From a virus: a stretch of 64,000 bases of DNA. Positions 2,307-55,560 of the stretch are shown piece after piece. The notes below the pieces were generated by a model. The model did not search any database, had not been told where the DNA came from, and saw nothing but the letters and a program-made list of their open reading frames with translations. Both the position numbers and the translations under genes were made by a program. Where the stretch lies: positions 32,001 through 96,000 of IMG/VR virus record IMGVR_UViG_3300048837_000975. The stretch is one strand, 5' to 3'. Position 1 is the stretch's first letter; each line of letters starts with the position of its first letter.

Positions 2307-3431
2307 TCAACCGGAATCTTTGTTCCGATGTCGATTTTTCAAAGGGGCTAGGAGCTTGGCTAGAGAGGAACCTCCAGGGAGACCGCGAGCGCCAGAGTAT
2401 AGTGCACTATGATAAGCTGCCCATGTGTCTCCAGGATGACCGTTCTCAACTTTTCCAGAATGAACAGAAGGCCACCTCCCTTTGGATCTGTTATGTTCTG
2501 CTGCTCGTTCGAGTATAAATTCTGTGTTTATCGGCCGTTTGTTGCTTATGTTCTGAACCCCAAATCTATCCTCGAACAGCTTAGCAAGAGAGCTTCCTCC
2601 AAGCAGCCCTCTGGCACCGGTCATTAGCGCCGTATTGTAACCACTCCACGTGTCAGTTTCGTATCCACCGTCAACGCGACCCGAGTACTGCGTTGGCCAG
2701 CTCCCGTGCCGCCAGAAGAATCCCAATGCCATGTCTGAGACAAAATCTTCTGTTAGCCTGGGAAGTGCCGCCTTATTTGGCACGCCAAACCTTTCACTAA
2801 GTAGTTTTGCTAACGATGAACCTCCCGGAAGACCCCTTAGTCCTTCGCGAAGCGCGTATTCGTACCTACCCCACGTGTCGCGAATATGTCCTCCGGGGAC
2901 CTGTTCCTCCGTCGTTGCTTTCGGCCAATTTCCCGTCAGTGCGCGATACTCAAGCGCTCTTTCTGCTATGAAGCTCTCGGTTACATGAAGACCCCTTCTT
3001 CCTTGACCACCGAGCGTGGCGTTGTAGCCAAAGGAAGGACACCAACCAATGAAAGAGCGAAACGCTTTAACGAACCTAGGCTCCATCTCGGCGAGCGACA
3101 GGTCCCTTTCGTCTGACGCAAAAAGTATCTCATGCAGAAATACGTCAGACCCATACTTTCTTATTGCTCTTTTGAATACGTAGTCATATCCGCACCTGTG
3201 CTTTTTGCAGCTCTCAGTTTTGTGAAACGACCATCTGCTTGTTGGATTCGCAGCAAATCCCACATACGAGAACTCCCGCTCAACCCCGTCCACGACCTTC
3301 ACATGGTAGTGCCGGTAGACGTAGTACAGTGGCGCGTTCGGATCCGAAATGACGTGCGAGTACAGCGGGCTCTTCGTCCACTGCACTCCCCGTCGATTCA
3401 ACCTCGAGATGGTATCAATCTCGTCGGACAT
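2307..3431 (-). CDS. GIY-YIG homing endonuclease-like protein with three C-terminal repeat domains
   Basis: YVY...YVG...RW..H...AIRKYG...E...GYN.TLGG; three DTW..Y..AL..G.RGL.GGSSLAKL repeats. Confidence 0.8.
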   Translation of the reverse strand: MSDEIDTISRLNRRGVQWTKSPLYSHVISDPNAPLYYVYRHYHVKVVDGVEREFSYVGFAANPTSRWSFHKTESCKKHRCGYDYVFKRAIRKYGSDVFLHEILFASDERDLSLAEMEPRFVKAFRSFIGWCPSFGYNATLGGQGRRGLHVTESFIAERALEYRALTGNWPKATTEEQVPGGHIRDTWGRYEYALREGLRGLPGGSSLAKLLSERFGVPNKAALPRLTEDFVSDMALGFFWRHGSWPTQYSGRVDGGYETDTWSGYNTALMTGARGLLGGSSLAKLFEDRFGVQNISNKRPINTEFILERAAEHNRSKGRWPSVHSGKVENGHPGDTWAAYHSALYSGARGLPGGSSLAKLLAPLKNRHRNKDSG

Positions 3432-4809: not shown

Positions 4810-5775
4810 CTATGCGCGGCGGCGCGTTCGCTTCTGCTGTTCAGGATCCGAGGCGTCGAGCCCTTCGGTGGCGGCAACGAATTCGCTCACCAGTGCGCTC
4901 CCGCCAACCGTGGGCGGCAGATCTGCTTCGGCAACCTCAACCGTTGGCGTCGAGCTTACGACCTCGGCGGCTACCGTCTGGACAGCTTCCTTGTCGGCTC
5001 GCTTCTCTTCCGCGGCTGCGATCGTGGCCCCGATGTCGAACCCTGCGTCGCTCTCGAGCACCTTCGCCAAAGCATCGTCCGGCGACAGGGCGACGTACTT
5101 GAGAACCTGCTTGATCGCAGTCTTTTTCCACATAGACGATTCCCATGCGTTCCATGGCGAACTCGGGTTGTTTGACGACTTCGATGCCTTCTTTACCTTG
5201 TCAATGTAGCGCTGGTTGATCACCTCGAACTCGGCGTCTCCGGACTTGAGAATAACAACTCCATACGCGTAGATCGGCCTGTCGATGTCCACTTCACCAT
5301 CAGACATCACATGAAGAGCTCCAAGAGCTTCTCGGTCTGACATCCCAGCCGGGACATGTTGCAGATCTCGGTGAAGGCCCAAGGTGTAACGGAATTCGTC
5401 ACCCGGGTATACGCAGTAAGCATAGATGCTCTTTACGTTACCAGACCGACGGGCCAGTTCACACAGACCCTTGTACCCGATCTGAAACTGGCACTCGCGC
5501 CCGTACGGAATCAGGTACGCCAGACCGAGAGCGCCATTCGGCTCAAGTCCCAAAGACGCAGACTGTCGAACCGAGTGAAAGAAGCTCTCTGGAGTGCAAT
5601 TCAGTAGTGCTGGATTTGTATGAATGGCATTGACGCAGACCTGCGCGAACCTCTTAAGATTCTGGTCTCCGCCCATTCCCTGAGGCAACGCCTGCGCCAG
5701 GGACTTCATGTTGTTGACCAAGATCTTGCGCAGCGCGGTAAAGCGCTCGTCGTCTGCTCGAATGATAGCCGTCAA
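4810..5775 (-). CDS. recT: RecT single-strand annealing recombinase
   Basis: LLNCTPES...LGLEP..LG.AYLIPY..ECQFQIGYKGL.ELARRSG...W..MWKKTAIK. Confidence 0.95.
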   Translation of the reverse strand: MTAIIRADDERFTALRKILVNNMKSLAQALPQGMGGDQNLKRFAQVCVNAIHTNPALLNCTPESFFHSVRQSASLGLEPNGALGLAYLIPYGRECQFQIGYKGLCELARRSGNVKSIYAYCVYPGDEFRYTLGLHRDLQHVPAGMSDREALGALHVMSDGEVDIDRPIYAYGVVILKSGDAEFEVINQRYIDKVKKASKSSNNPSSPWNAWESSMWKKTAIKQVLKYVALSPDDALAKVLESDAGFDIGATIAAAEEKRADKEAVQTVAAEVVSSTPTVEVAEADLPPTVGGSALVSEFVAATEGLDASDPEQQKRTRRRA

Positions 5776-7406: not shown

Positions 7407-7622
7407 CTATTTCTCTTCGGCCGCTAGGCAGGCTTCGCACCTGGCCGGAGAGCCAATCAATCCCTTGCGAATCGTTGTCCGGAAAAGCTTGCAAGCGTAC
7501 GAATCGGGCCCTCCTTGCATCGGAGCCGGAATGTACCTAACGGCCGGACACGGACCGCAGTGGATTCCGTCCTTCGCGACAGAGGTTAAGAGGCACAGGT
7601 GTACGGTTTTACTTTCTTCCAT
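7407..7622 (-). CDS. small Cys-rich (zinc-binding) protein
   Basis: CxxC...C...CxxC spacing; overlaps the upstream gene. Confidence 0.5.
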   Translation of the reverse strand: MEESKTVHLCLLTSVAKDGIHCGPCPAVRYIPAPMQGGPDSYACKLFRTTIRKGLIGSPARCEACLAAEEK

Positions 7623-8547
7623 AGTTCTTCTTCAATTTCAGTTGTCGCACCTCGGTCTCCGCGACCGTGTAACTCTTGCGTTTGTACTTCGAGTAGTCCC
7701 AGGATCCGGACCCATCAGGAAGCAGCCCGCGCTCATGCTGCCCGATAGACTCCGCTAGCCTGTTCTCAAGCTCGTTTACTGTCTTCTTCAAGTCCGAGAT
7801 CTGATCCTTGGTCTCCTGAAGCTCCTTGGTCCAGATCACCGCCTCATCAGGTAGGGTCACTGCCGACCCAGCCATGATGTCCAAGGCATCGATCGCGTCC
7901 TTTGACGACGTGGTGTTGTCTGCCGGGAACTCGGGCATCTTGTCGCCAGCCAGAGAGTCATAAAACTCCTGGGTCTTGCGTACAATGAGAGCGCTCAGGC
8001 CCTTGTCTCTTCTGAAGTCGCCAAACCTATGATGAAAGAACGGAGCCCCGATCACGGCCGACAGTCCACCCCAGGAGGCGCCCGTGACGATCATCTGAGT
8101 CTGCAGCTGAATCTGGTACTTCAGGTGAGGTTCACCCTTCGCTGGCCAGTTCTCTCCATTACCGGTCGTCTTCAGCTCAAGAGGCGGAAGCGGTCCAACG
8201 ATCGGCCTTCCGTCAACATCCAGAATCTCGTAGTCCAGCGTTGCGCCGAGCCACGGGTACTGCTTTGACCTCATCAGGTACTGGCAACGTCGAACCTTGC
8301 GACCGGTCTTCTTGCTGTAGAGCTCCGCAACAAGCGGCTCCATTACGTGACCCATCTCGAGGTATCCTGGGTCTTCGAGCTCTTTGCGCTCGATCCATCG
8401 TTTCTTCTCAAGCCAGATCTTGGTCGCGCCAGGCACCACGCCTAGGATAGCTGGAACCTCGCTTGCGGTGATGAGTTTCCACCTGTGCTTTAGCCAGGCT
8501 TCACGGTCGTCGTCGCCGTTGCAAACGATGTCGTAAAACTCGCTCAT
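7609..8547 (-). CDS. YqaJ-like viral recombinase exonuclease (partner of RecT)
   Basis: WL..R...ITASE...ILG...GH..EP...PWLGATLD...LELKT...Y.IQLQ.QM.VTG. Confidence 0.93.
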   Translation of the reverse strand: MSEFYDIVCNGDDDREAWLKHRWKLITASEVPAILGVVPGATKIWLEKKRWIERKELEDPGYLEMGHVMEPLVAELYSKKTGRKVRRCQYLMRSKQYPWLGATLDYEILDVDGRPIVGPLPPLELKTTGNGENWPAKGEPHLKYQIQLQTQMIVTGASWGGLSAVIGAPFFHHRFGDFRRDKGLSALIVRKTQEFYDSLAGDKMPEFPADNTTSSKDAIDALDIMAGSAVTLPDEAVIWTKELQETKDQISDLKKTVNELENRLAESIGQHERGLLPDGSGSWDYSKYKRKSYTVAETEVRQLKLKKNYGRK

Positions 8548-16474: not shown

Positions 16475-17671
16475 ATGCTTCGCCATCGCGCCTACCGCTA
16501 CGAACTAGATCCCGGTCTAGAGACCGAGGAATTGTTGCGCAAGCATTGCGGCGCAGCTCGATGGGCGTGGAACTGGGCGCTTGCGGAACGGAAGAAGCGG
16601 TTCACTGAGAAAGAAGGAAAGGAACGCTTTACGAATGCGCAGACCCAGAACAAGGAGCTGGTTCTACTTAAGCACACTACGCATCCTTGGTTGTTCGATG
16701 TAAGCAAGTGTGCTCCCCAGCAGGCGCTTCGTAATCTAGATCGCGCATTCAAGAACATAAAGAAGACTGGTGCCGGGTTCCCAAAGTTCAAGAAGCGCGG
16801 AGCGTGTCGAGATAGCTTCTATCTTCAGCTAAACATAGCCATTTCCGGACGCTACGTCCGCCTTCCTCGCCTAGGCGCCATTCGGCTGAAGGAGCGCCCG
16901 AAGGTCTACGGTGAGATCAAGAGCGCTACGGTATCACGACAAGCAGATCGCTGGTTCGTATCGCTTCACGTTGTTGAGGAGGTTCCGCTTCCGGCTCCTC
17001 CGCCTCCAAATGGAGATGTCACCGGGGTAGACCTGGGCATCAGCACCTTCGCGACGCTGTCTGATGGGACGAAGATCGAGCATCCGAAGCCGCTGGCGCG
17101 CGACCTGGAGAAGCTGAAGCGAGCACAGCGAGCGCTGTCTAGAAAGCGCAAGGGATCCAAGAACCGCGAGAAGGCGGCGCTTCGGTTCGCCAAGATTCAC
17201 ATGCGCATCGGAAACGTGCGCAAAGACTTTTTGCACAAGATCACCACGATGCTTGCGAAAACCAAGCAGGCTATAGTCGTGGAGGATCTTAACGTCTCGG
17301 GCATGGTAAAGAACCGCCACCTGTCGCGCTCTATCATGGAGCAAGGCTGGGGCGAGTTTAGGCGTCAGCTCGAGTACAAGACGGAATGGTATGGTTCAAA
17401 GCTCATCGTAGCGGATCGCTTATTCGCATCATCGAAGAAATGTTTCGATTGCGGAGAGAAGAACGCCATGCTAAAACTGTCTGATAGGAAATGGACTTGT
17501 CGATGCGGAGCGCATCACGATCGTGATGTGAACGCAGCGAGAAACCTACGCCAGCTCGGCGTGGTCAAGCCTGTGGAGAGTCCTCTTGCGGCGGAACCGG
17601 AATCCTCCGGGTCTACGAGTAATGGCTCGATGAAACAGGAAGCAGGAATGGGAAATGTCAGAATTTTCTAG
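16475..17671 (+). mobile_element. tnpB: solo TnpB (IS200/IS605/IS607-type RNA-guided endonuclease), no transposase adjacent
   Basis: HTH AYRYEL.P...G.AR.AWN.AL; GFPKFKK; RuvC GVDLG, VEDLNV, DRDVNAA; CxxC/CxC zinc finger. Confidence 0.95.
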
Positions 17672-21566: not shown

Positions 21567-21595
21567 TTGACTTTCTTAGCCATCAGCAGTATCCA
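21567..21595 (+). promoter_or_regulatory. sigma70-like promoter for the solitary repeat RNA
   Basis: TTGACT-N17-TATCCA, 6 nt before the ATTG at 21602. Confidence 0.55.
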
Positions 21596-21601
21596 GTATC
21601 C

Positions 21602-21621
21602 ATTGCGCTCCGAGGAGCGAC
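21602..21621 (+). CRISPR. solitary truncated CasPhi repeat (single repeat-guide unit)
   Basis: ATTGCGCTCCGAGGAGCGAC, 19/20 identical to the repeat core, with the change in the hairpin loop. Confidence 0.9.
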
Positions 21622-31732: not shown

Positions 31733-32364
31733 ATGGGCTAATCGAAAAACTGGTTGCCGAGCTTGGTGCGCTGGACCTGGACGCGCGTGTTGAGGCGCTG
31801 AACAAGATTCGTGAGGCGCTTCACGATGTGAGCCCGTTCAAGGAGGAACCGGTCGACTTCGTTCGATGGGTTAAGTCCGATACAGTTTCCGCGAACGCGT
31901 GGAATCCAAATCACGTCGCTCCGCCTGAGATGAAGCTGTTGGAGCTGTCGATTGTCGCTGATGGGTACACTCAACCAGTGGTAGGGTACGCCATTGAATC
32001 CGGCTACGAGGTTGTTGACGGCTTTCACAGAAATCTAGTGGCCAAAACTTCACCTCAAGTACGCGAACGAGTGAAGGGTTACCTTCCGATAGTCCGGATC
32101 AAATCCGACCGAGAAGATAAGGGAGATCGGATGGCGGCCACAATACGCCATAACAGGGCTCGCGGAAAACATGAGGTAATGGCCATGTCAACCATAGTAG
32201 CCGACCTAATCAAGCGCAACTGGTCAGAAAGTCGTGTTGCTACAGAGCTCGGAATGTCCGCTGATGAGGTTTTACGCTTGCGTCAGGTTACAGGGCTAGC
32301 AGAACTGTTCGCGGATCGCGAGTTCTCAGAGGCTTGGGAGATCGTTGAGGACACTCCGGAATGA
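31729..32364 (+). CDS. ibrB: IbrB-like ParB/Srx nuclease-domain protein
   Basis: EPVD.V.WV...AN.WNPN.VAPPEM.LL..SI..DGYTQP; VDGFHR; ATIRHNRARGKH. Confidence 0.92.
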   Translation: MNGLIEKLVAELGALDLDARVEALNKIREALHDVSPFKEEPVDFVRWVKSDTVSANAWNPNHVAPPEMKLLELSIVADGYTQPVVGYAIESGYEVVDGFHRNLVAKTSPQVRERVKGYLPIVRIKSDREDKGDRMAATIRHNRARGKHEVMAMSTIVADLIKRNWSESRVATELGMSADEVLRLRQVTGLAELFADREFSEAWEIVEDTPE

Positions 32365-33638
32365 AGCTTGAGCAGATGCTAGAAACGGACGGCTGGAGCA
32401 AAAGTTCGCTGTACTCCGACGAATCAGAATACCCATGGTATGTGTATAGGCATATATGCGAGCCAACTGGCAAATGCTACGTTGGTTATTCGGACAAGCC
32501 GATCAGGCGGTGGTTAGAGCACGTCAGGAACTCAAGAAATCAAAACAGCGATTGCTATGATACGAAGCTAAGTCGAGCGATCAGAAAATATGGAGAGACA
32601 CAGTGGTCGCACGAGATAGTAGCAAAGACCGACTGCCAAGAGTCGGCGGCTACACTTGAGCTGAAGTACGTTTCCGTGTTCAATTCGTACGAAGATGGTT
32701 ACAACTCCACGCTGGGCGGAGACGGAGCATCTCAAAAAGAGCGACTTACTGAAGAGTTCATCCTCGATAGGATCCGTGACCACAAGAAGCTCACGGGAAA
32801 GTTTCCGACCACGTCGTCGCTTTCGGTTGCCGGCGGATACGAAGGAGACACCTGGAACGGATACAGCCTAGCACTGTCGCAGGGATTTAGAGGGTTGCCC
32901 GGCGGATCCTCTCTGGCAAAGCTTCTGGCAAAGCACTTTGATCATGCAACAAATATGACCAAAGTGGACCTGACCGAAGAGTTCATTCTTGAGAGAGCTA
33001 CCGAGCACTTTAGAATCTTTTCAAGGTGGCCCCGCGGGTCTGATGGAGATGTTATAGGAGGACATCCCGGCGATACCTGGTCAGGGTATCATAGTGCTTT
33101 GTCGAAAGGTCACAGAGGTCTTCGCGGAGGAACGTCACTGGGAGAATTCCTACTATCAAAGACAGGTTACAGGAACCACAAAAACAAGCAGAAGCTTACC
33201 GAGTCGTTCATTGCAGAAGCTGCAACAAAGTACAAGGATAAAAACGGACGATGGCCAACATCAAAATCTGGTGATGTAGAATTTGGTCATCCAGGAGATA
33301 CCTGGATTGGTTACGACGGTGCGCTTGAGAAGGGTCTCCGCGGCCTGCCAGGCGGAAGCTCACTAGCTAGACTGTTAGACGAGCAAACTGATTATGTGAA
33401 CCACAAGACGAAGCCGGATCTAACTGAAGAATTTATCCTGAACAGGGCAGCAGAATACCTGTCAGAAACAGGAAAGTTACCAACCAAGCATTCCGGTAGC
33501 GTAAGAAACGGTCACCCTGGCGATACGTGGTGCGGATACGCAGCATCCCTGGAAAGGGGAACAAGAGGTCTTCCTGGCAAATCAACCTTGCCGAAGCTCC
33601 TCAAACCCCTGAAGCTCGTCAAGCCCACTCAAACTTGA
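32361..33638 (+). CDS. GIY-YIG homing endonuclease-like protein with four C-terminal repeat domains
   Basis: YVY...YVG...RW.EH...AIRKYG...GYN.TLGG; four G..GDTW.GY..L..G.RGL.G repeats; paralogue of 2307-3431. Confidence 0.8.
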   Translation: MKLEQMLETDGWSKSSLYSDESEYPWYVYRHICEPTGKCYVGYSDKPIRRWLEHVRNSRNQNSDCYDTKLSRAIRKYGETQWSHEIVAKTDCQESAATLELKYVSVFNSYEDGYNSTLGGDGASQKERLTEEFILDRIRDHKKLTGKFPTTSSLSVAGGYEGDTWNGYSLALSQGFRGLPGGSSLAKLLAKHFDHATNMTKVDLTEEFILERATEHFRIFSRWPRGSDGDVIGGHPGDTWSGYHSALSKGHRGLRGGTSLGEFLLSKTGYRNHKNKQKLTESFIAEAATKYKDKNGRWPTSKSGDVEFGHPGDTWIGYDGALEKGLRGLPGGSSLARLLDEQTDYVNHKTKPDLTEEFILNRAAEYLSETGKLPTKHSGSVRNGHPGDTWCGYAASLERGTRGLPGKSTLPKLLKPLKLVKPTQT

Positions 33639-34219: not shown

Positions 34220-34891
34220 ATGAGCTACTATCCTACGAATGGTTTGGGCGCGTCCGCGTCTGTTTCGGCCTCTGCCTCGTTGAGCGTTGGTGCGAAGAAG
34301 CCGGCTCCGAAGAAGCCTGCGCCCAAGAAACCGGCTCCGAAGAAGCCTGGTCTCATCACTTCGTTCGCCGCGAAGATAGCTGCGGCTACGAAATCTGCCG
34401 CTGATGCTAAGAAAAAGGCACAGATTGAGGCCGCCCGCAAAGCAGCCTCAGCTGCCGCATCAAAGCCTGGCACACCGAAGGCTGCTTCTGTTCCCGCTGC
34501 GCGGCCAGCGCTGCTGAGCGCTGCTGGTCACGCTATCAAGGCTGCGTCTACGCCAGTTGCTCGCCCAGCGCTCCTGAGCGAGTCCGGCGCGAAGGCGAAC
34601 GCCGATGTGATGAATCCGGAAAAGCAGAGCATTTCGACCGACGGAAAGTGCTACGCTGGTAAGGTTCTTTTTGAGAACCGTGGAATCAGCTTCTGTATGC
34701 CTCCCGCCGCGTACGCGCAGATGCAGCTCGAAAAGGCTGGCCCCGCCGTCGTCTCGGTGAAGCCCGAGGATGCCATTAATTCTGATCAGAAGACGGTGGA
34801 GGTGGAGCCAAAGAGTAACCTTCCTCTGAAGATTGCTGTCGGTGGGTTGATTGCTGCCGGAGCCATCACGCTGATTATTGTGGCAAGCTAA
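34220..34891 (+). CDS. Ala/Lys/Pro-rich protein with C-terminal TM
   Basis: NGLG, KKPAP x3, C-terminal hydrophobic helix. Confidence 0.7.
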   Translation: MSYYPTNGLGASASVSASASLSVGAKKPAPKKPAPKKPAPKKPGLITSFAAKIAAATKSAADAKKKAQIEAARKAASAAASKPGTPKAASVPAARPALLSAAGHAIKAASTPVARPALLSESGAKANADVMNPEKQSISTDGKCYAGKVLFENRGISFCMPPAAYAQMQLEKAGPAVVSVKPEDAINSDQKTVEVEPKSNLPLKIAVGGLIAAGAITLIIVAS

Positions 34892-49364: not shown

Positions 49365-49503
49365 TATCTGAACACATCGCACCTTGCCCCAGAGACTTCC
49401 GGAAAACCGGGGTCCTGGGGTTAAGGTGTCAGAAGGGTCCGAGCGGGAACCAGGCCCGTAACTAACCAAGGTAGACCTTTCAGGAAAGTAAAAGCAAAAG
49501 ACC

Positions 49504-50253
49504 ATGGCAAAAATTGTTTCTATTCGCGAGCGCGTTCATCAGCCCTTCTATGACCACCTGATCCGTACGGCTGGTATGGCGCAGGGCTCGGTCCAGGACA
49601 CGAACGCTCTGTTCACCTCGAACGGCGCGCGCACCGAGGCGACCACGAACTTGATCAACGGCGCGACGCTGCCGTCTGACCAGTCGCACGTGACCCTCGT
49701 GCTTCGCGTTTTCACGTGGTTCCGTAACCCCGTTCTCCGCGTTGCGGGTGCGGATGCTGGTGAAGTGGCTGGCAACGGCGATTATGACGATCTGGACGAG
49801 TTCCAGACCGGCGGGATCGCGGTCGGCAACGCTCCGGGTTCCACGAAGGACGTGTACCGTCTGGCGTGGCAGTCGAGCGAGCAGCTTCACTGGACGTTCG
49901 GTGCGGGTCTGAAGCCCAGCATTGACAATATGCCTACTTGGTACTTCCCGACGGGTGGCGGCCTCCTGTCGGACCTCGCCGGCAGCACGGACCTCGTGCA
50001 CCTCAACAACGGTATGCCCTCGCATGAGAGCATTCTCCGCCTCGGCCGCGCGGTGCTCATCCCCCCGCGTCAGAACATTCTCTGCACTGCCAAGATTTTC
50101 AGCCTTCCCGACGCCGGGAACGCGCTGGCGTTCGGCACGGTGCAGGGCAGCCGCAACATGCTGTCGCTCCGCGACAACCTGAACGCGGTCGACCTCGTGC
50201 AGAAGTGCGTGAGCTTCTGTATCGATGGTCTGTTCAGCCGCGACGTTCAGTAA
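49504..50253 (+). CDS. putative major capsid protein (beta-rich, single jelly-roll-like)
   Basis: 249 aa, no TM, alternating beta pattern (QPFYD...TNL..G.LP...FP.GGG...NG.P...IDGL.SRDVQ); strong codon bias; own promoter and terminator; the fold is inferred, not searched. Confidence 0.6.
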   Translation: MAKIVSIRERVHQPFYDHLIRTAGMAQGSVQDTNALFTSNGARTEATTNLINGATLPSDQSHVTLVLRVFTWFRNPVLRVAGADAGEVAGNGDYDDLDEFQTGGIAVGNAPGSTKDVYRLAWQSSEQLHWTFGAGLKPSIDNMPTWYFPTGGGLLSDLAGSTDLVHLNNGMPSHESILRLGRAVLIPPRQNILCTAKIFSLPDAGNALAFGTVQGSRNMLSLRDNLNAVDLVQKCVSFCIDGLFSRDVQ

Positions 50254-50280
50254 CAGCGGATTCTGTCGAAATCGACAGGG

Positions 50281-50316
50281 CGAAGGGGCTCCGGGGTTGA
50301 CTCGGGGCCCTTTTCG
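50281..50316 (+). terminator. intrinsic terminator hairpin after the capsid-like gene
   Basis: CGAAGGGGCTCCGGG-GTTGA-CTCGGGGCCCTTTTCG; a second small hairpin CTGTCGA-AA-TCGACAG at 50263-50278. Confidence 0.7.
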
Positions 50317-50324
50317 TCTACAAT
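50297..50324 (+). promoter_or_regulatory. sigma70-like promoter of the mini-array, embedded in the terminator
   Basis: TTGACT-N16-TACAAT, 7 nt before the first repeat. Confidence 0.7.
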
Positions 50325-50331
50325 GTAGAGC

Positions 50332-50570
50332 ATTGCGCTCTGAGGAGCGACATACAGAAGCTGACGCACCGTCGCAAATTGCGCTCTGAGGAGCGACATG
50401 CTGGGCTTCAGACCTGCGGCACCTATCATTCCACAAATTGCGCTCTGAGGAGCGACTAGAAGGGCTGATGAACGCGCTCGCGAATAGAATTGCGCTCTGA
50501 GGAGCGACAGCCGCGACGTTCAGTAACAGCGGATTTGCGCTCTGAGGAGCGACACTTGGTACTTCCCTAC
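50332..50570 (+). CRISPR. mini-array of five 5'-truncated CasPhi repeats with five self-matching guides
   Basis: core ATTGCGCTCTGAGGAGCGAC at 50332, 50378, 50437, 50489 and (19 nt) 50535; guides match 49518-50262. Confidence 0.95.
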
Positions 50571-50603
50571 ACACTGTAATCTGGAGTGGTGCAAAAAAAG
50601 TTC

Positions 50604-50632
50604 TTGCTCCGCTTCGCATGGGCTGCTACAAC
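50604..50632 (+). promoter_or_regulatory. putative cas12j promoter
   Basis: TTGCTC-N17-TACAAC with extended TG; ATG at 50642. Confidence 0.5.
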
Positions 50633-50641
50633 GCTGGAGCG

Positions 50642-52945
50642 ATGAAGAAAACGACAAATCTGAAGATTGAAAATGGCGTATCGCCGCTTGCGCAGATGAC
50701 TCGCAAGCATTTTCCGGGAAAAAGGTTTCCAGCTAGCGTCTTGAAGCCAGCTGGCAGGAAGCTCAAGGATCACGGTGAGCAAGCTGCGATCGAATTTCTG
50801 CAGGCCAACATTGATGTTCCTTACGGGAACTTTAAGGCGCCGGCAAAGTGTAATGTTGTCGCTACTAGTCGCCCGTATAGCGAGTGGCCGCTTTACAAGT
50901 TCTCATCTGAGCTTCAGAAAGCAGTCTTTGCACTCTCAAAGGATAGGCTGATGGAGATTGAACCATCAAAGCAATCCGACGCAGAGAACGAGAAGTTCCT
51001 GTCAGCGATCGGAGTCAGCGCGGATCCGTCAATTAACGTGACGTTCGTTAGCGCGTGCATTTCAAAGGCCGTGCATACGTACCTTGGAATGGAGAAGAAG
51101 GCTGAGAACAAGTACCAGAAGAAGTTGTCAAGGTGTCGCTCAGAGAGCGAGCTAAGTAGCGTCACACCAGAAAACGTATACAATGAAGACGGAACGCTTT
51201 CTGACGGGTGGCGGCCCGGTTTCAATGCTAACCTATACGGAAACTCAAATAGCAAGCTGAGTCTATTCGGATCCGTTAGGTCGCACAACAAGGTGGAGCT
51301 GCCTGTGTGGCTTTCTGAATACCGAGAGTGGGCAAAGAATCGCTCAAAGGATTCAAAGATCAATGAGTACAGCGCAAGCGTTGATCGACTGTCGATTCCG
51401 GAGGGCCAGCCCGGTCACGTTCCGCTTTGGCAAAGAGACTCGTCTAAGCGAACTAAGCCGGGCGGTGGAGAGATCAAAGAAGGGGTTCGTCGTCATCGAT
51501 GGTACTCGAACCGAAACAACGCGAACCGAAGGAACAAGGTTGACCAGGCAACCAGGTTGGCCGCATCGGCTATGGAGATGGTTCTTGCAATCGCATTCTT
51601 CGGAGAGGACTGGGTTCTCTTTGACATTCGCGGACTACTTAGGAACGCTCGCTACCGCAAGCTTGTGAACAAGAATACGACATATGGCGATCTGATGGAG
51701 TTGTTTACGGCAGATCCTGTTCTTGATACAAAGCGAGGAATCATCACCGCATCGTATAAGGACACGACTCTCAAGATCGTTCAGCAGACAATAGTCGGCG
51801 AAAAGAAGTCCAAATCCAAGATTCTGGAAGAGGTCCAGAAGAACGGGCCGGTTGCTGTTGTATCGATCGATCTCGGTGTAAATGAGCCCGTGTCGTACCG
51901 TGTGTCGAGGGTTGATGTAGCTGGAGGGAACGCCATCGTTGCCGAGCTTGCCGCTGAAGGATTCATGAGCAACGAACTAAAGAAAGAGATTTCTAGTTAT
52001 CGGGAAAAGTCGGACGAGCTTAACGGCGATCTTCGTGAGAAGGCAGTCCTTTCCCTCTCGGACGAAATGCAGGCAGAGATTCGCCGAGTCGACGCAACGA
52101 ATGCCAGTGACTCGAAGAACAGAATCTGCGAAATGCTCAGCCTGGATCCGGAAAGCGTTGACTGGTCAAAGATGACCACGCAAACCAGGTTCATTTTCAA
52201 CAAGCACGTTGAGAACGGCGGGGATCCTAACGTCCTTCTGTTCACTCCGACCGAGGACAAAAAGAACAAAGGTAAGAAGAGCAAGAATAAGAAGGGCGAG
52301 TACGGAGACAGGGTTCCGCACTCCGACAGTGGGATCGCTCGGAACATTGCCAGAGAGAAGCTCAGTATGGAGACTTGCGAGGCTCTCAACAAAGCAAAAC
52401 GGGAACTGCAACAAGAAGATCCTCGGTATGGTAAGCTTTCCAAGCGAAAGCAGGAGTTCGCTCGACGCGTAGTGAACGGAGTGGTTGTGCGCGCACAGGA
52501 AGTCACTGGGTGTGATAACGTTGTGCTGGTCGTTGAGAAGCTCAACGTATCAAACAAGATGTTTAGCGGAAGCGGAAAACGAGCTCCAGGATGGGACAAC
52601 TTCTTCGTTCACAAGAAAGAGAACCGCTGGTTTATTCAGGCGCTACACAAGGCGTTCACCGACAAGGCTGCGCACAAGGGCATTCCTGTAATCGAAATTA
52701 AACCGAGCTATACAAGTCAGACTTGCCCAGCGTGCGAGCATTGTGACAAGGACAACCGAGACGGGGTTCACTTCTGCTGCACCAGGTGCGGGTTCACCGG
52801 TCACGCGGACCTCAACGTAGCGTGCTTCAACATTGAGAAAGTTGCTCTTACTGGAGAAGCTATGAGCGGACCCGGCAGCGCAACTGCGCACAAAAAGACT
52901 CGCAAACCAAAGAAGGCTATGGTAGAGTCAGATAAAGCCGCGTAA
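50642..52945 (+). CDS. cas12j: CasPhi (Cas12j) type V CRISPR effector
   Basis: KHFPG.RF; NF..PAKC.VV..SR...EWP; PG..P.WQR; D.RGLLRNAR; FT.DPV.D; RuvC-I SIDLG; RuvC-II VEKLNV; GSGKR.PGWDNFF..KKENRWFIQ.LHKAF; zinc ribbon; RuvC-III ADL.VA. These match the CasPhi-2 sequence as recalled. Confidence 0.97.
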   Translation: MKKTTNLKIENGVSPLAQMTRKHFPGKRFPASVLKPAGRKLKDHGEQAAIEFLQANIDVPYGNFKAPAKCNVVATSRPYSEWPLYKFSSELQKAVFALSKDRLMEIEPSKQSDAENEKFLSAIGVSADPSINVTFVSACISKAVHTYLGMEKKAENKYQKKLSRCRSESELSSVTPENVYNEDGTLSDGWRPGFNANLYGNSNSKLSLFGSVRSHNKVELPVWLSEYREWAKNRSKDSKINEYSASVDRLSIPEGQPGHVPLWQRDSSKRTKPGGGEIKEGVRRHRWYSNRNNANRRNKVDQATRLAASAMEMVLAIAFFGEDWVLFDIRGLLRNARYRKLVNKNTTYGDLMELFTADPVLDTKRGIITASYKDTTLKIVQQTIVGEKKSKSKILEEVQKNGPVAVVSIDLGVNEPVSYRVSRVDVAGGNAIVAELAAEGFMSNELKKEISSYREKSDELNGDLREKAVLSLSDEMQAEIRRVDATNASDSKNRICEMLSLDPESVDWSKMTTQTRFIFNKHVENGGDPNVLLFTPTEDKKNKGKKSKNKKGEYGDRVPHSDSGIARNIAREKLSMETCEALNKAKRELQQEDPRYGKLSKRKQEFARRVVNGVVVRAQEVTGCDNVVLVVEKLNVSNKMFSGSGKRAPGWDNFFVHKKENRWFIQALHKAFTDKAAHKGIPVIEIKPSYTSQTCPACEHCDKDNRDGVHFCCTRCGFTGHADLNVACFNIEKVALTGEAMSGPGSATAHKKTRKPKKAMVESDKAA

Positions 52946-53133
52946 TGATCTAAAACGCCGAGATCCTCTGAACCGGAGGCGCTCGCAAACAGAAATTGAC
53001 AACAAGTTCGACAGGATGCCATCTGAGCATAGAATGGCACCAGGAGGCACGAGCGCGAGATCGCTCCCGGATCGGAAAGGCTCTCGCAAACCGTTCGGTA
53101 ACCGCGCGAATCTACAGGGTCTCACGGAGACCC

Positions 53134-53662
53134 ATAGAAACCCCTACAAATTGCGCTCTGAGGAGCGACGACCGCCAAAGCAGCCAAGGTGCCAGCGCTA
53201 CCGACATAGAAACCCCTACAAATTGCGCTCTGAGGAGCGACTGACCACGGGATCGCTCGCCGTCGTGAACGGAATGATCATAGAAACCCCTACAAATTGC
53301 GCTCTGAGGAGCGACCCAGTGTTCGTGACCTCTACCGCCGTCTACTTTTGGCATAGAAACCCCTACAAATTGCGCTCTGAGGAGCGACTTGGTGCCAGCC
53401 TCACCACGACCGCCGCATCAGGCGCGATAGAAACCCCTACAAATTGCGCTCTGAGGAGCGACTGAGTCCACCCAATCACTATCGAGCATATGCCACTCCT
53501 ATAGAAACCCCTACAAATTGCGCTCTGAGGAGCGACCGCGACGAACGCAAAGAGCTTGTGGCTGCGGCCCGCCATAGAAACCCCTACATATTGCGCTCTG
53601 AGGAGCGACTTAGCTTCGCCGAGGATCTAGAAACCCCTACAAATTGCGCTCTGAGGAGCGAC
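53134..53662 (+). CRISPR. CasPhi CRISPR array, 8 repeats of 36 bp and 7 spacers (36, 38, 37, 38, 38, 37, 17 nt)
   Basis: ATAGAAACCCCTACAAATTGCGCTCTGAGGAGCGAC at 53134, 53206, 53280, 53353, 53427, 53501, 53574 (1 SNP) and 53627 (1 SNP); ATTG-hairpin-AC 3' end typical of CasPhi. Confidence 0.99.
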
Positions 53663-53788
53663 ACTCAAACGGAACGAACGTCAGGGGAGACGCCACAAAA
53701 CGTAAAGCTTGATTGAATTCCTGCGTCATGGTAACTTGCTATGTGTTGCAGCCCGCCATGTTGGCGGAGACCCAATCATAGGAGAACC

Positions 53789-54721
53789 ATGGCAAATATC
53801 GATCTGACTCAGCTCATTCAATCCGCTAATTTTGCGAGCGCGGCCGCGCGTAAGCACGAGCAGCAAATCTCTGGCATCGGAATGCGCGTTGCGGAGATTC
53901 AGAAGGAGTTCGGCAACCTTCGTGATGCTCTTTCGCGCGTTGAGATCTCGTCCCGCATGGGCGATCCCGGAATTCAGCGTGTTGAGAACATTCCCGGCCG
54001 ACGAGTGCCCTTCGATCTGCTCGTAGACATTCCGATCGCTGCGGGCAGCACCGCTGTTCAGCAGGGCACTATCACGATCAGCCAAGAAGGCCCGTTCGTG
54101 GCGGTCTCGCGCTTCGCTACGCTGCTTTCTGCGTACGAGTACACCTACACGGAGCCCGGCACTTCTAGCACGACGCGTTACCAAGGCCGCAGCTACGGCC
54201 GGTACCGCCCGATTCACTCTGCGTGGGATCTGAACGATGGCAATCCGATTGCGACTACGACTCTGACGACTCCGCCCACCTTCCCTGGTACCGGTGCGCC
54301 TCTGATCGTGTCTCCGAGCAACGCGAGCAGCTTCCGCACGATGGAGGGAGACTTCCGAATCAAGTTCGAGAACGCCGGTTCCAGCTTCCCCAGAAGCAAC
54401 CTCGAAGTTCCGAGCCCGTTCTGGACGAAGAGCATCAACGAGGCATTCGATCTTGGGGCTCTGGATGTGTTTGAGCGCGGCGAGGTGCTGAGCTTCCGTG
54501 TTCTTCCGCTTCATGCCGCAAACGCCTCCTATGGCAACCTCGCTGGCTACGGAACGGGCGACTATCCGTACATTGAGTCGCAGTGGGATGCTGTCGAAGG
54601 TATTGACGATACGGTCGACGCGGAAGCCACGGTGGATCCGATTACGCGTTACCCGAACTCGATTCTGACTATTGGCTTCCACGGATACCGGATCATCCAA
54701 CAGCCGGGCGTCGTCTACTAA
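53789..54721 (+). CDS. second beta-rich capsid-like protein with N-terminal coiled coil
   Basis: AGGAG SD; beta pattern ending LTIGFHGYRI; biased codons. Confidence 0.55.
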   Translation: MANIDLTQLIQSANFASAAARKHEQQISGIGMRVAEIQKEFGNLRDALSRVEISSRMGDPGIQRVENIPGRRVPFDLLVDIPIAAGSTAVQQGTITISQEGPFVAVSRFATLLSAYEYTYTEPGTSSTTRYQGRSYGRYRPIHSAWDLNDGNPIATTTLTTPPTFPGTGAPLIVSPSNASSFRTMEGDFRIKFENAGSSFPRSNLEVPSPFWTKSINEAFDLGALDVFERGEVLSFRVLPLHAANASYGNLAGYGTGDYPYIESQWDAVEGIDDTVDAEATVDPITRYPNSILTIGFHGYRIIQQPGVVY

Positions 54722-54729
54722 GGAGCATT

Positions 54730-55560
54730 ATGAGCGATTTCGCGAGGCAATTTAGCCAAGCGTTCGCGCAGACCAACCCGCACATCGGTGGCAATCGTTC
54801 TGCCAGTGTGCGGGTTGGACAACCGGCGCCAATTCCCGAGTCCGTAAGGGGTCGGGGGTGTAGCGACGCTGCGCGCACTGTTGTGGCTGGCGGAGCAATG
54901 TCACAGTTGCTTCTGCACCCTACGTTCGTTCCGTTTGAGCTTACGTTCCGTAAGCTACCCGACGACGGCGTTTATACCGCTAACAGAATAAACCAATACG
55001 CATTTGAGCTTGGATCCTTCACGGTTCCCACTTCGATGTCATTGGCTGTCGCGGAGTACTCGTTTCGACCTTACCGCATCTCTGGGGCTGCTCCTGGAGA
55101 AGCTGTTCCGCTCGAGACAGGTAGATTGTCGTTGGAGCTTGCGTACGACCTGAACATTGACCAGTACCGTAAGGGAAACATCAAGACACAGGTTGTCCCG
55201 CGGCTACCTTCGCCTGCACAGAACGCGTTTGCTGGTAATCCTTCTGGCGGATCTGTGTTTCAGCAGTCGGTTGGCGGGCTGGCTGGATCGGCGTCGCTGG
55301 CGAGCTTCAACTCTGACGTTACATCCGGGCTCACCAACTATGGTGACGCTCTCATCATTCAGGGAACAAAGACTCAGCAGGGTCCTGAGAAGTTCCCGTT
55401 CACCTATTACGTTAGGTCCAACCAGGCTGTTCAGATGCGAGTGATCGTGTTTGGGCAGATCACGATTCCTCTTGCGTTCTTCGAGGGCGTGTTGAGCGGG
55501 TATCTGATGCCGCAGAACACTCTTGAGTCGATGCTTGACGGCGTGAGTCCCTGTCAGTGA
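54730..55560 (+). CDS. third beta-rich capsid/vertex-like protein
   Basis: AGGAG SD; FELGSFTVP...EGVLSGYL. Confidence 0.5.
   Translation: MSDFARQFSQAFAQTNPHIGGNRSASVRVGQPAPIPESVRGRGCSDAARTVVAGGAMSQLLLHPTFVPFELTFRKLPDDGVYTANRINQYAFELGSFTVPTSMSLAVAEYSFRPYRISGAAPGEAVPLETGRLSLELAYDLNIDQYRKGNIKTQVVPRLPSPAQNAFAGNPSGGSVFQQSVGGLAGSASLASFNSDVTSGLTNYGDALIIQGTKTQQGPEKFPFTYYVRSNQAVQMRVIVFGQITIPLAFFEGVLSGYLMPQNTLESMLDGVSPCQ

Follow-up and report, generated by a model that had tools for sequence, protein, structure and literature searches.

A phage Cas12j locus with a mini-array of handle-only repeats whose spacers match the adjacent gene

Introduction

Canonical arrays of the Cas12j (CasPhi, type V-J) family of CRISPR systems (named for their clustered and regularly interspaced short palindromic repeats) are known from huge phages, in which the Cas12j effector has no trans-activating CRISPR RNA (tracrRNA), uses a T-rich 5' protospacer-adjacent motif (PAM) and is followed, 3' of its gene, by an array whose repeats contain an ATTGC motif, a 5-nucleotide (nt) stem, a tetraloop and a GAC end (PMC9917002, PMC8298400). 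A Cas12j locus with all of these traits is present in the stretch of DNA analysed here, termed the window (64,000 nt, bases 32001-96000 of the single 125,690-bp virus record IMGVR_UViG_3300048837_000975), in a carrier phage of 126 kb. Its distinguishing element is a mini-array upstream of cas12j, which departs from canonical arrays in that the repeats measure 19-24 instead of 36 nt, the spacing is irregular, the first unit is fused to a putative promoter, and the spacers match the genome of the carrier itself, in the neighbouring gene p249.

CasPhi-2 recognises the PAM TBN, and the site at which Cas12j processes its guides was reportedly mapped by Pausch in 2020 (Science). Published Cas12j PAMs are TTN, Cas12j3 contacts its handle at positions C-1, A-2, G-17 and U-18, and hybrids of >12 nt activate this enzyme (PMC8298400). 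The mature handle of Cas12j-8 is 25 nt long and its optimum spacers have 16-18 nt (PMC11933828). The RuvC site of Cas12j also cuts the precursor CRISPR RNA (pre-crRNA) (PMC8298400, PMC11127173). Supplementary files aside, we found no publication in which truncated, solitary or repeat-like units are said to occur naturally in Cas12j/CasPhi loci.

Results

Anatomy of the mini-array

The 19-nt core TTGCGCTCTGAGGAGCGAC, which also forms the 3' end of the 36-nt main-array repeat, occurs in the window in 14 copies at up to 3 mismatches, 13 of them exact, against a shuffle expectation of 0.02; none of 100 shuffles reached 14. Eight copies belong to main-array repeats and one is solitary (21603), the remaining five, all exact, forming the mini-array.

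50332-50553, plus strand: mini-array of five handle-only repeats (R1-R5), cores at 50333, 50379, 50438, 50490 and 50535
50618-52945, plus strand: cas12j, probable start at ATG 50642 with GGAG before it
53134-53662, plus strand: main array of eight 36-nt repeats and seven spacers, six of 36-38 nt and one of 17 nt

The cores of the mini-array follow each other at 46, 59, 52 and 45 nt, and spacers 1-4 are 23, 36, 33 and 26 nt long. Sequence shared among the units extends 19-24 nt upstream of the spacer. Over the 16 nt located 5' of the handle, the five units are identical to the corresponding full-repeat sequence at 3, 7, 7, 3 and 4 of 16 positions (24/80), compared with 15-16/16 within the main array, and the cores contain 0 changes in 95 bases. 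This bears out the original prediction, made from the letters of the window, that the repeats are trimmed to the 3' 19-24 nt of the 36-nt repeat with the hairpin kept.

The core folds into ATTG, a 5-bp stem, a tetraloop and AC (-7 kcal/mol). In an alignment of repeats from eight Cas12j loci the hairpin pairs in 40 of 40 cells, with changes on both sides at three of the five pairs, a covariation score that none of 500 shuffles reached, and the 5' halves of these repeats vary freely. A covariance model of the handle, run over the whole genome, returned 14 copies and nothing more (the next match had 14.5 bits, E 0.53), the mini-array units scoring 20-30 bits. The contact positions C-1, A-2, G-17 and U-18, together with the ATTGC...GAC motif, all lie inside the 19-nt core. 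By sequence, the retained part of the repeat is the crRNA (CRISPR RNA) handle held by Cas12j, as had been proposed and in agreement with published handle features (PMC9917002, PMC8298400).

These data point to a maintained guide cassette and not to a decayed array. Neutral decay appears unlikely because it should strike the handle and the 5' part alike, yet 0/95 core changes stand against 24/80 identity upstream, and because handle-only units recur in distant Cas12j loci. Checked for such decay, the mini-array thus speaks for the original prediction on each count: unchanged cores, unrelated 5' parts, and recurrence in the metagenome loci L013 and L016/L019 (see below).

Tandem Repeats Finder reported the main array and not the mini-array, which falls outside the array definition of the family (repeats of 19-24 nt, not ~36; spacing 45-59 nt). 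As judged with this program, which is not a CRISPR finder, mini-arrays of this kind are probably missed by software that relies on regular repeats.

Five guides match the adjacent gene

All five mini-array spacers match p249 of the same genome, beginning at spacer base 1.

49504-50253, plus strand: p249, 249 amino acids (aa), holding all five self-protospacers
50205-50222, minus strand: protospacer of guide 1, 17/18, mismatch at guide base 12, PAM side ATCG
49903-49922, minus strand: protospacer of guide 2, bases 1-17 exact, base 18 mismatched, bases 19-20 matching, PAM side GTCA
49518-49550, minus strand: protospacer of guide 3, 33/33, PAM side GTCA (49551-49554, reverse complement)
50236-50262, plus strand: protospacer of guide 4, 26-27/27, spanning the p249 stop and 9 nt more, PAM side GTTC
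49936-49949, plus strand: match of guide 5 (after the last repeat), bases 1-14 exact, PAM side CCT, not T-rich

Two of the spacers match perfectly, over 33 and 26 nt. An exact prefix of at least 14 nt anywhere in the genome was obtained for 1 of 2000 random 30-mers, and the longest prefix match of the main-array spacers and of the solitary unit is at most 11 nt. The PAM sides of four of the five self-protospacers fit TBN (chance of at least four of five, p 0.006). Targeted codons of p249 are more often invariant in its family (19/31) than those elsewhere in the gene (90/218; p 0.029), and spacer 3 matches relatives at 28/29 (L001), 27/28 (L005) and 23/23 (L003, L004) positions. The targets are situated about 35-780 bp upstream of the -35 box of the cassette promoter (50297), inside the open reading frame (ORF). 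Self-matches to p249 with PAMs, of which the original prediction made no mention, dominate any reading of function.

No enrichment of escape mutations was detected: among the differences listed, the allele of a 96%-identical relative in public run X1 has ~6 differences in 105 PAM-plus-seed bases, compared with 4% overall. The non-matching 3' part of spacer 2 was not found by a 21-nt exact search of viral_contigs. A 13-nt exact prefix match of spacer 1 at 34698 (minus strand) has GGC on its PAM side and was taken as chance.

Two further observations concern the ends of these matches. Repeats 1-4, the hairpins and the promoter are enclosed by a 28-bp perfect direct repeat, 50235-50262 and 50508-50535 (the end of p249 and spacer 4); if its arms recombined, 273 bp would be deleted and repeat 5 and cas12j joined directly to the p249 stop codon. 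At the end of the spacer 3 self-match, ATAGAA is followed in the genome by AC, and the resulting ATAGAAAC (49516-49523, reverse complement) is identical to the 8 nt with which the full 36-nt repeat opens (53134-53141), a microhomology exactly where the 5' part is missing.

A putative promoter in a terminator-like hairpin and a solitary unit

The interval between p249 and the first repeat contains both a terminator-like structure and promoter-like boxes.

50263-50318, plus strand: two hairpins after p249, the second (50279-50318) GC-rich, followed by a U-run and terminator-like
50297-50324, plus strand: sigma-70-like promoter TTGACT-16-TACAAT, predicted start 50331-50332
50554-50641, plus strand: guide 5 and the gap to the probable cas12j start, 88 nt
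21567-21621, plus strand: solitary handle-only unit, handle at 21602-21621 with one loop change

The region 50262-50325 folds into the two hairpins at -37.9 kcal/mol (z -6.2; 0/200 shuffles as stable). TTGAC lies in the loop of the second, GC-rich hairpin and the U-run comes after it. TTGACT-16-TACAAT is the sole promoter-like match in 49400-51000 (shuffles: 0.5, standard deviation 0.6), and 7 nt separate the end of its -10 box from the A of ATTG (50332); a transcription start is expected at 50331-50332. The predicted overlap of promoter and terminator is thereby recovered, with the -35 box in the hairpin loop and the same -35 motif, at the same offset, at a second unit. Between the array and cas12j (50554-50641) no terminator-like fold was detected (z -0.12), and because of this the two are probably co-transcribed as one RNA.

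The second unit is the solitary one. The 10-mer GGGGTTGACT precedes it too, and the distance from TTGACT to ATTG is 29 nt there, as at the mini-array. GGGTTGAC has three occurrences on both strands of the 125,690-bp genome, against 44 for TTGACT, and two of the three precede the two promoter-proximal handle units by an equal distance. The 40-nt 'spacer' of the solitary unit has no match of 12 nt or longer in the genome. It overlaps a promoter-like TTGACA-17-TATGGT on the minus strand, the transcript of which would carry the reverse complement of the handle.

In two public runs, a contig of a 96%-identical relative agrees with the window across the hairpin and the -35 box, up to 50317. Beyond this point it has 2742 unrelated letters, starting with a -10-like TATGCT at the same 16-nt spacing. 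Upstream of p249 the same contig also contains an exact handle, with TACAAC and then 7 nt in front of it, in the same geometry. An Rfam match to the L31 leader at 50261-50288 (25.3 bits, below the cut-off of 33.3) was taken as chance.

The cassette occupies a cargo hot spot

The 3.5-kb cassette (window 50254-53788) is missing from all ten related phage loci, and none of these ten p249 loci encodes Cas12j. In nine of them p249 is followed, after about 110-320 nt, by a homologue of the window gene 53789-54721 (p326); the exception, L005, has a 1.6-kb insert at the site (L005:6753-8347) with a 461-aa ORF without Pfam match. Between the same flanks, closer relatives in public runs have different inserts, 2742 and 1244 nt long. 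Sequence comparison thus identifies the gap from p249 to the next conserved gene as a cargo hot spot. The only ORF of the cassette is cas12j; a transposase is not encoded in it.

None of the contigs of four public DNA runs covers 50429-53208, and therefore the link between cassette and p249 has no independent check. No closer cassette-bearing relatives emerged from searches of viral_contigs with Cas12j, either as a single protein or as a six-sequence alignment, or with the 19-nt core. One exact copy of the core outside any array, in a Duodenibacillus metagenome-assembled genome (genome_contigs; L028:3350-3368), was discounted because ~4 chance matches are expected in 596 billion bases.

Handle-only units in other Cas12j loci

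Nine metagenome loci encode Cas12j relatives (34-43% identity), L016 and L019 being near-duplicates. Seven off-array handle copies were identified in L013, three of them cut at exactly 20 nt: two make up a small array with a 20-nt spacer and one sits just upstream of cas12j on the other strand. L016/L019 have one off-array handle, 125 nt upstream of cas12j. In L017 there are two to three off-array copies, one within the first cas12j codons, and a near-full repeat inside the gene. The latter, at L017:6036-6094 in the coding region, is flanked by an 11-bp direct duplication, and the insertion (37-nt repeat plus 11 nt, 48 nt in all) keeps the reading frame. The remaining Cas12j contigs, L015 aside, are too short to judge off-array handles.

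The heptamer CGGTGTA is over-represented in L012-L017, with 8 copies in L013 as against an expectation of 1.5. Found 10-13 nt before start codons (that of cas12j among them) and before arrays, it is probably a promoter of these Cas12j phages.

L013:985, 1027, 1093, 2369 and 7263: examples of CGGTGTA

Three of the eight copies in L013 are located 14-21 nt before handle-only units. Counting GGGGTTGACT as well, two unrelated types of promoter therefore appear to be fused to bare handles.

Effector and main array

The cas12j ORF matches Cas12j3 (7odf, E 7.8e-133) and CasPhi-2 (7lys, E 3.7e-124) in a phmmer search against structures in the PDB, and Pfam detects a TNB domain in its product. The RuvC carboxylates D418, E640 and D731 align with those of CasPhi-2 and are invariant in 6/6 homologues; identity to the nearest homologues found is only 33-37%. 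ATG 50642 is probably the true start, because GGAG lies upstream and the first residue of the long ORF that aligns with solved Cas12j structures is residue 23. Effector, handle and PAM place the locus in the Cas12j (type V-J) family.

The main array sits 3' of cas12j and shows the canonical regular alternation of repeats and spacers. Its 17-nt spacer is the seventh (53610-53626), and the last two repeats have one change each, in the 5' part. Protospacers of spacers 2 and 6 were identified in other contigs of runs X1 and X2, with 2 mismatches each, and both are preceded by TCA (2/2), which supports the PAM independently of the self-matches. No significant target of the main-array spacers was found in the whole records of the five closest relatives (best E 0.018), and none among GenBank phages. 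In run X3, from another study, an 855-nt contig contains one exact 34-nt copy of the repeat (window 53209-53242), whose flanks are unrelated; this repeat thus exists in other places too, either singly or with different spacers.

After the last main-array repeat, 53664-53681 matches 54922-54939, on the minus strand of the gene 54730-55560, at 18/18 positions (guide bases 2-19). The PAM side of this match is TAA, without T-B-N motif. It is the sixth self-match and falls on the other flank of the cassette.

The targeted gene and the rest of the genome

Homologues of p249 (55-72% identity) are present in 10/10 related phage loci. Pfam and PHROGs gave no match for p249, nor did tblastn against GenBank phages; in the Atlas only viral clusters without names are hit. 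An AlphaFold (AF2) model from a 46-sequence alignment (predicted local distance difference test, pLDDT, 81.9) is a beta-sandwich, a model from 10 sequences (pLDDT 34) having been unusable. Its best fold match is the single jelly-roll capsid protein of SPV1 (Z 7.8; root-mean-square deviation 3.7 over 137 residues), followed by that of satellite panicum mosaic virus (Z 6.3) and by capsid cement or decoration proteins of phages (Z 5.4-5.7); all are below Z 8, the level above which a match exceeds a common arrangement. Foldseek with the same model returned nothing at E <=0.001. We regard p249 as a conserved virion-type protein with a predicted jelly-roll fold, which may be a capsid accessory. Nothing supports a role as major capsid protein, and a 455-aa 'virion structural protein' (head and packaging, E 1e-93) is encoded elsewhere in the genome. 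The earlier designation of the upstream gene as a capsid gene is thus without direct support, given the silence of Pfam and PHROGs and a best jelly-roll match of Z 7.8. The products p276 and p326 have no Pfam match.

The record has a G+C content of 55% and the contig is 78% complete. The genome encodes RecT (4810-5772) and RecE (7609-8544), an integrase (L031:17536-18453), four DNA methyltransferases (L031) and at least five homing endonucleases of GIY-YIG or HNH type (window 2307-3428 and 32361-33638; L030:316-1179; L031:12678-13748; L032:6504-7832). A TnpB-like ORF of 398 aa (16475-17668; PHROG 506 'transposase', E 1e-121) shares the phage with Cas12j. Cas1 is absent from the genome as searched in this 78%-complete contig. 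This absence is the sole ground for the suggestion of the original prediction that the units probably cannot acquire spacers.

Discussion

Our interpretation starts from what the DNA itself shows: how the repeats are built, the sequence of promoter and terminator, complementarity, PAMs, the status of the cassette as an insertion, and recurrence in other Cas12j loci. The promoter would start a transcript at the first handle base, and the first unit would need no 5' processing. The transcript would run through the five handle-guide units into cas12j, and units R2-R5 would still need to be cut by Cas12j or host RNases. A 5' end set by the promoter, as originally envisaged for the mini-array, fits the sequence geometry of the first unit, as of the solitary one, and does not extend to R2-R5, which cannot obtain their 5' end in this way. 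Cas12j would take up handle-only units and be directed to p249-type DNA; the most likely use would be against such DNA of kin phages sharing a cell. It would act like a free-standing homing or marker-exclusion nuclease, only RNA-guided, in a recombination-proficient phage. We consider the architecture, taken by itself, quite likely to be as described, whereas the whole chain, including a role in kin-phage conflict at a recombination hot spot, is put forward tentatively, with a little less than even confidence. Conflict with kin is favoured because the targets are conserved blocks with PAMs and because the arrangement mirrors free-standing homing endonucleases; a further reason is that competing viruses are the usual targets of viral mini-arrays and of phage CRISPR systems (PMC11656645). 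Negative feedback by read-through from the presumed capsid gene, which had also been raised, is speculation.

By analogy, the cassette might be an RNA-guided counterpart of a free-standing phage homing endonuclease, with private, promoter-fused, handle-only guides against conserved blocks of the flanking gene. Cuts in co-infecting kin would then be repaired by the phage RecET with the carrier as template, spreading the cassette and flanking markers, and the handle-only guides would be a separate class, apart from the ordinary array used on unrelated targets. We think this doubtful.

A number of findings weigh against use of the guides on kin phages. The best match of all five guides is the genome of the carrier itself, relatives being poorer; two guides match it perfectly with PAMs, and an active Cas12j should therefore cut its own phage. 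Nothing found in this analysis protects the carrier, and symmetric cutting of carrier and kin gives no drive. The figures for Cas12j3 and Cas12j-8 quoted above imply that even short self-matches should be effective. In the 96% relatives of runs X1 and X2 the differences listed include guide 1 base 3, guide 2 base 6 (X1 only) and guide 5 base 3, and with such seed differences these relatives would be poorer targets than the carrier. The transcriptional steps are drawn from consensus motifs, and the -10 box of the solitary unit is weak (TATCCA). In length, the mini-array units are 2-6 nt below the 25-nt handle of Cas12j-8 (PMC11933828); their description as already-processed guides is therefore approximate only. 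Among the other Cas12j loci, L015 has no off-array handle in 4.8 kb upstream, and within the 12-kb loci of L013, L016 and L017 nothing matches the spacers of the handle-only units there; aiming at the own genome is therefore so far unique to this phage.

The main rival takes the self-matches at face value: handle-only guides would make Cas12j bind its own p249 without cutting, so that late transcription, or read-through into the cassette, would be blocked or timed. Since no viable phage can cut itself, binding of this kind is the simplest way out. The guides carry the alleles of the carrier at polymorphic sites (spacer 3 equals the carrier where L001 differs), and three of five matches stop abruptly, after 14, 17(20) and 18 nt, in the manner of regulatory guides (PMC10120712), for which, as for homing guides, off-array atypical repeats are typical (PMC10120712, PMC11656645). 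Set against this are an intact RuvC triad, two fully complementary guides, targets that lie inside an ORF, 70-800 bp upstream of the cassette promoter, with none on a promoter, and ten of ten relatives that run p249 without the cassette, so that we see self-regulation as a real possibility, though well below even. The position of the array in the 5' leader of cas12j, with no terminator between, permits another view, in which the leader hairpins would be binding or cleavage sites of Cas12j that tune its own mRNA, or would stabilise the 3' end of p249 read-through RNA, spacer content being secondary. Handles beside the start of cas12j, 125 nt before it in L016/L019 and in its first codons in L017, as well as the cutting of pre-crRNA by the RuvC site (PMC8298400, PMC11127173), fit such an element, which we nevertheless consider improbable: it leaves unexplained that a single gene is matched by all five spacers from their base 1, with PAMs and on both strands, and that a solitary unit stands at 21602, far from cas12j.

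Both remaining explanations remove the paradox of self-matching guides by other means. The mini-array could be an inactive, deletion-damaged old array, in which self spacers are tolerated as truncated repeats give no working guides. Truncation below the reported 25-nt mature form (PMC11933828) could indeed abolish loading, self-matching spacers are expected to survive only if harmless, there is no Cas1 to renew the array, and the 8 nt that the genome at the spacer 3/R4 junction shares with the start of the full repeat hint at a microhomology deletion. Such a relic would, however, need four independent deletions, each ending within 5 nt of the handle edge, with 95 core bases unchanged beside unrelated 5' parts; its own promoter in register, the arrangement repeated at 21567-21621, recurrence of handle-only units in unrelated Cas12j phages, matches that all start at guide base 1 and enriched PAMs all speak against it, and we give it little credence. 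Alternatively, the contig, as a metagenome-derived virus record, may join the cassette to the p249 of a co-occurring target strain, so that the true allele escapes and the array is an ordinary anti-kin weapon. Variants of p249 at 96% and >99% identity do co-occur in public runs, and four of the five protospacers are >100 nt from the array. In contrast, one short read would span the distance from the spacer 4 protospacer to the terminator-promoter hairpin (35 nt) and to repeat 1 (71 nt); in an independent contig of a relative, the end of p249 runs into this hairpin and -35 box as well; and no escape allele was observed. The chance of such a chimera appears slim.

If handle-only units do serve as guides, a second natural route to Cas12j guides would exist, a bare handle plus a promoter, with little or no processing, which bears on the design of compact multiplex guide arrays for small editors. 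A nuclease-proficient phage CRISPR system with guides that match its own genome next to PAMs is a paradox, the solution of which must reveal something new: candidates are a binding-only class of guides, protection of self DNA (an anti-Cas12j factor or DNA modification), or homing-type conflict between kin phages. With irregular arrays of this kind probably overlooked, the CRISPR content of phages, and self-targeting, may be under-counted.

Comparison with known systems

Free-standing phage homing endonucleases are likewise intergenic nuclease genes aimed at flanking DNA. TnpB with its guide RNAs offers the same likeness, an intergenic nuclease gene with specificity for the DNA flanking its own location, but cuts the vacant site only, since the element splits the target from the adjacent motif, whereas here the targets in the carrier are intact (10.1101/2023.03.14.532601, 10.1101/2023.11.20.567912). 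The delocalized crRNAs of CRISPR-associated transposons are also off-array, with an atypical repeat and a target adjoining the insertion site of their own element; those systems have nuclease-dead effectors and a transposase, in contrast with the kept RuvC triad and the cassette without transposase in this phage (PMC11656645). RNA anti-CRISPRs and solitary phage repeat units are similar as phage-borne repeat hairpins that could load a Cas protein; without a working spacer they inhibit the host system, while the units described here have seed-first spacers beside the phage's own Cas12j (PMC11656645). In type II-C systems the 5' end of the guide is set by transcription initiation, as predicted here, but the promoter lies inside every repeat and Cas9 works with a tracrRNA; in our locus it lies outside the repeat and serves the first and the solitary units only (PMC5965381).

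Regulatory mini-arrays and cr-like RNAs (Shmakov et al., PMC10120712), including those upstream of cas12a, are closer in that off-array repeat units beside the effector gene pair with DNA of their own genome, seed first and partially, as three of five guides do here. They aim at cas promoters and avoid full matches, unlike the present guides, directed at the ORF of a virion-type gene with two of five matching over their full length; in that source Cas12j is named 0 times (PMC10120712). The viral mini-CRISPR arrays of inter-virus conflict resemble the mini-array as short, virus-borne sets of spacers against a conserved gene of their own lineage. They borrow host repeats and Cas proteins and match the rival and not the carrier, whereas the phage described here encodes its own effector and is itself the best match of its guides (PMC11656645).

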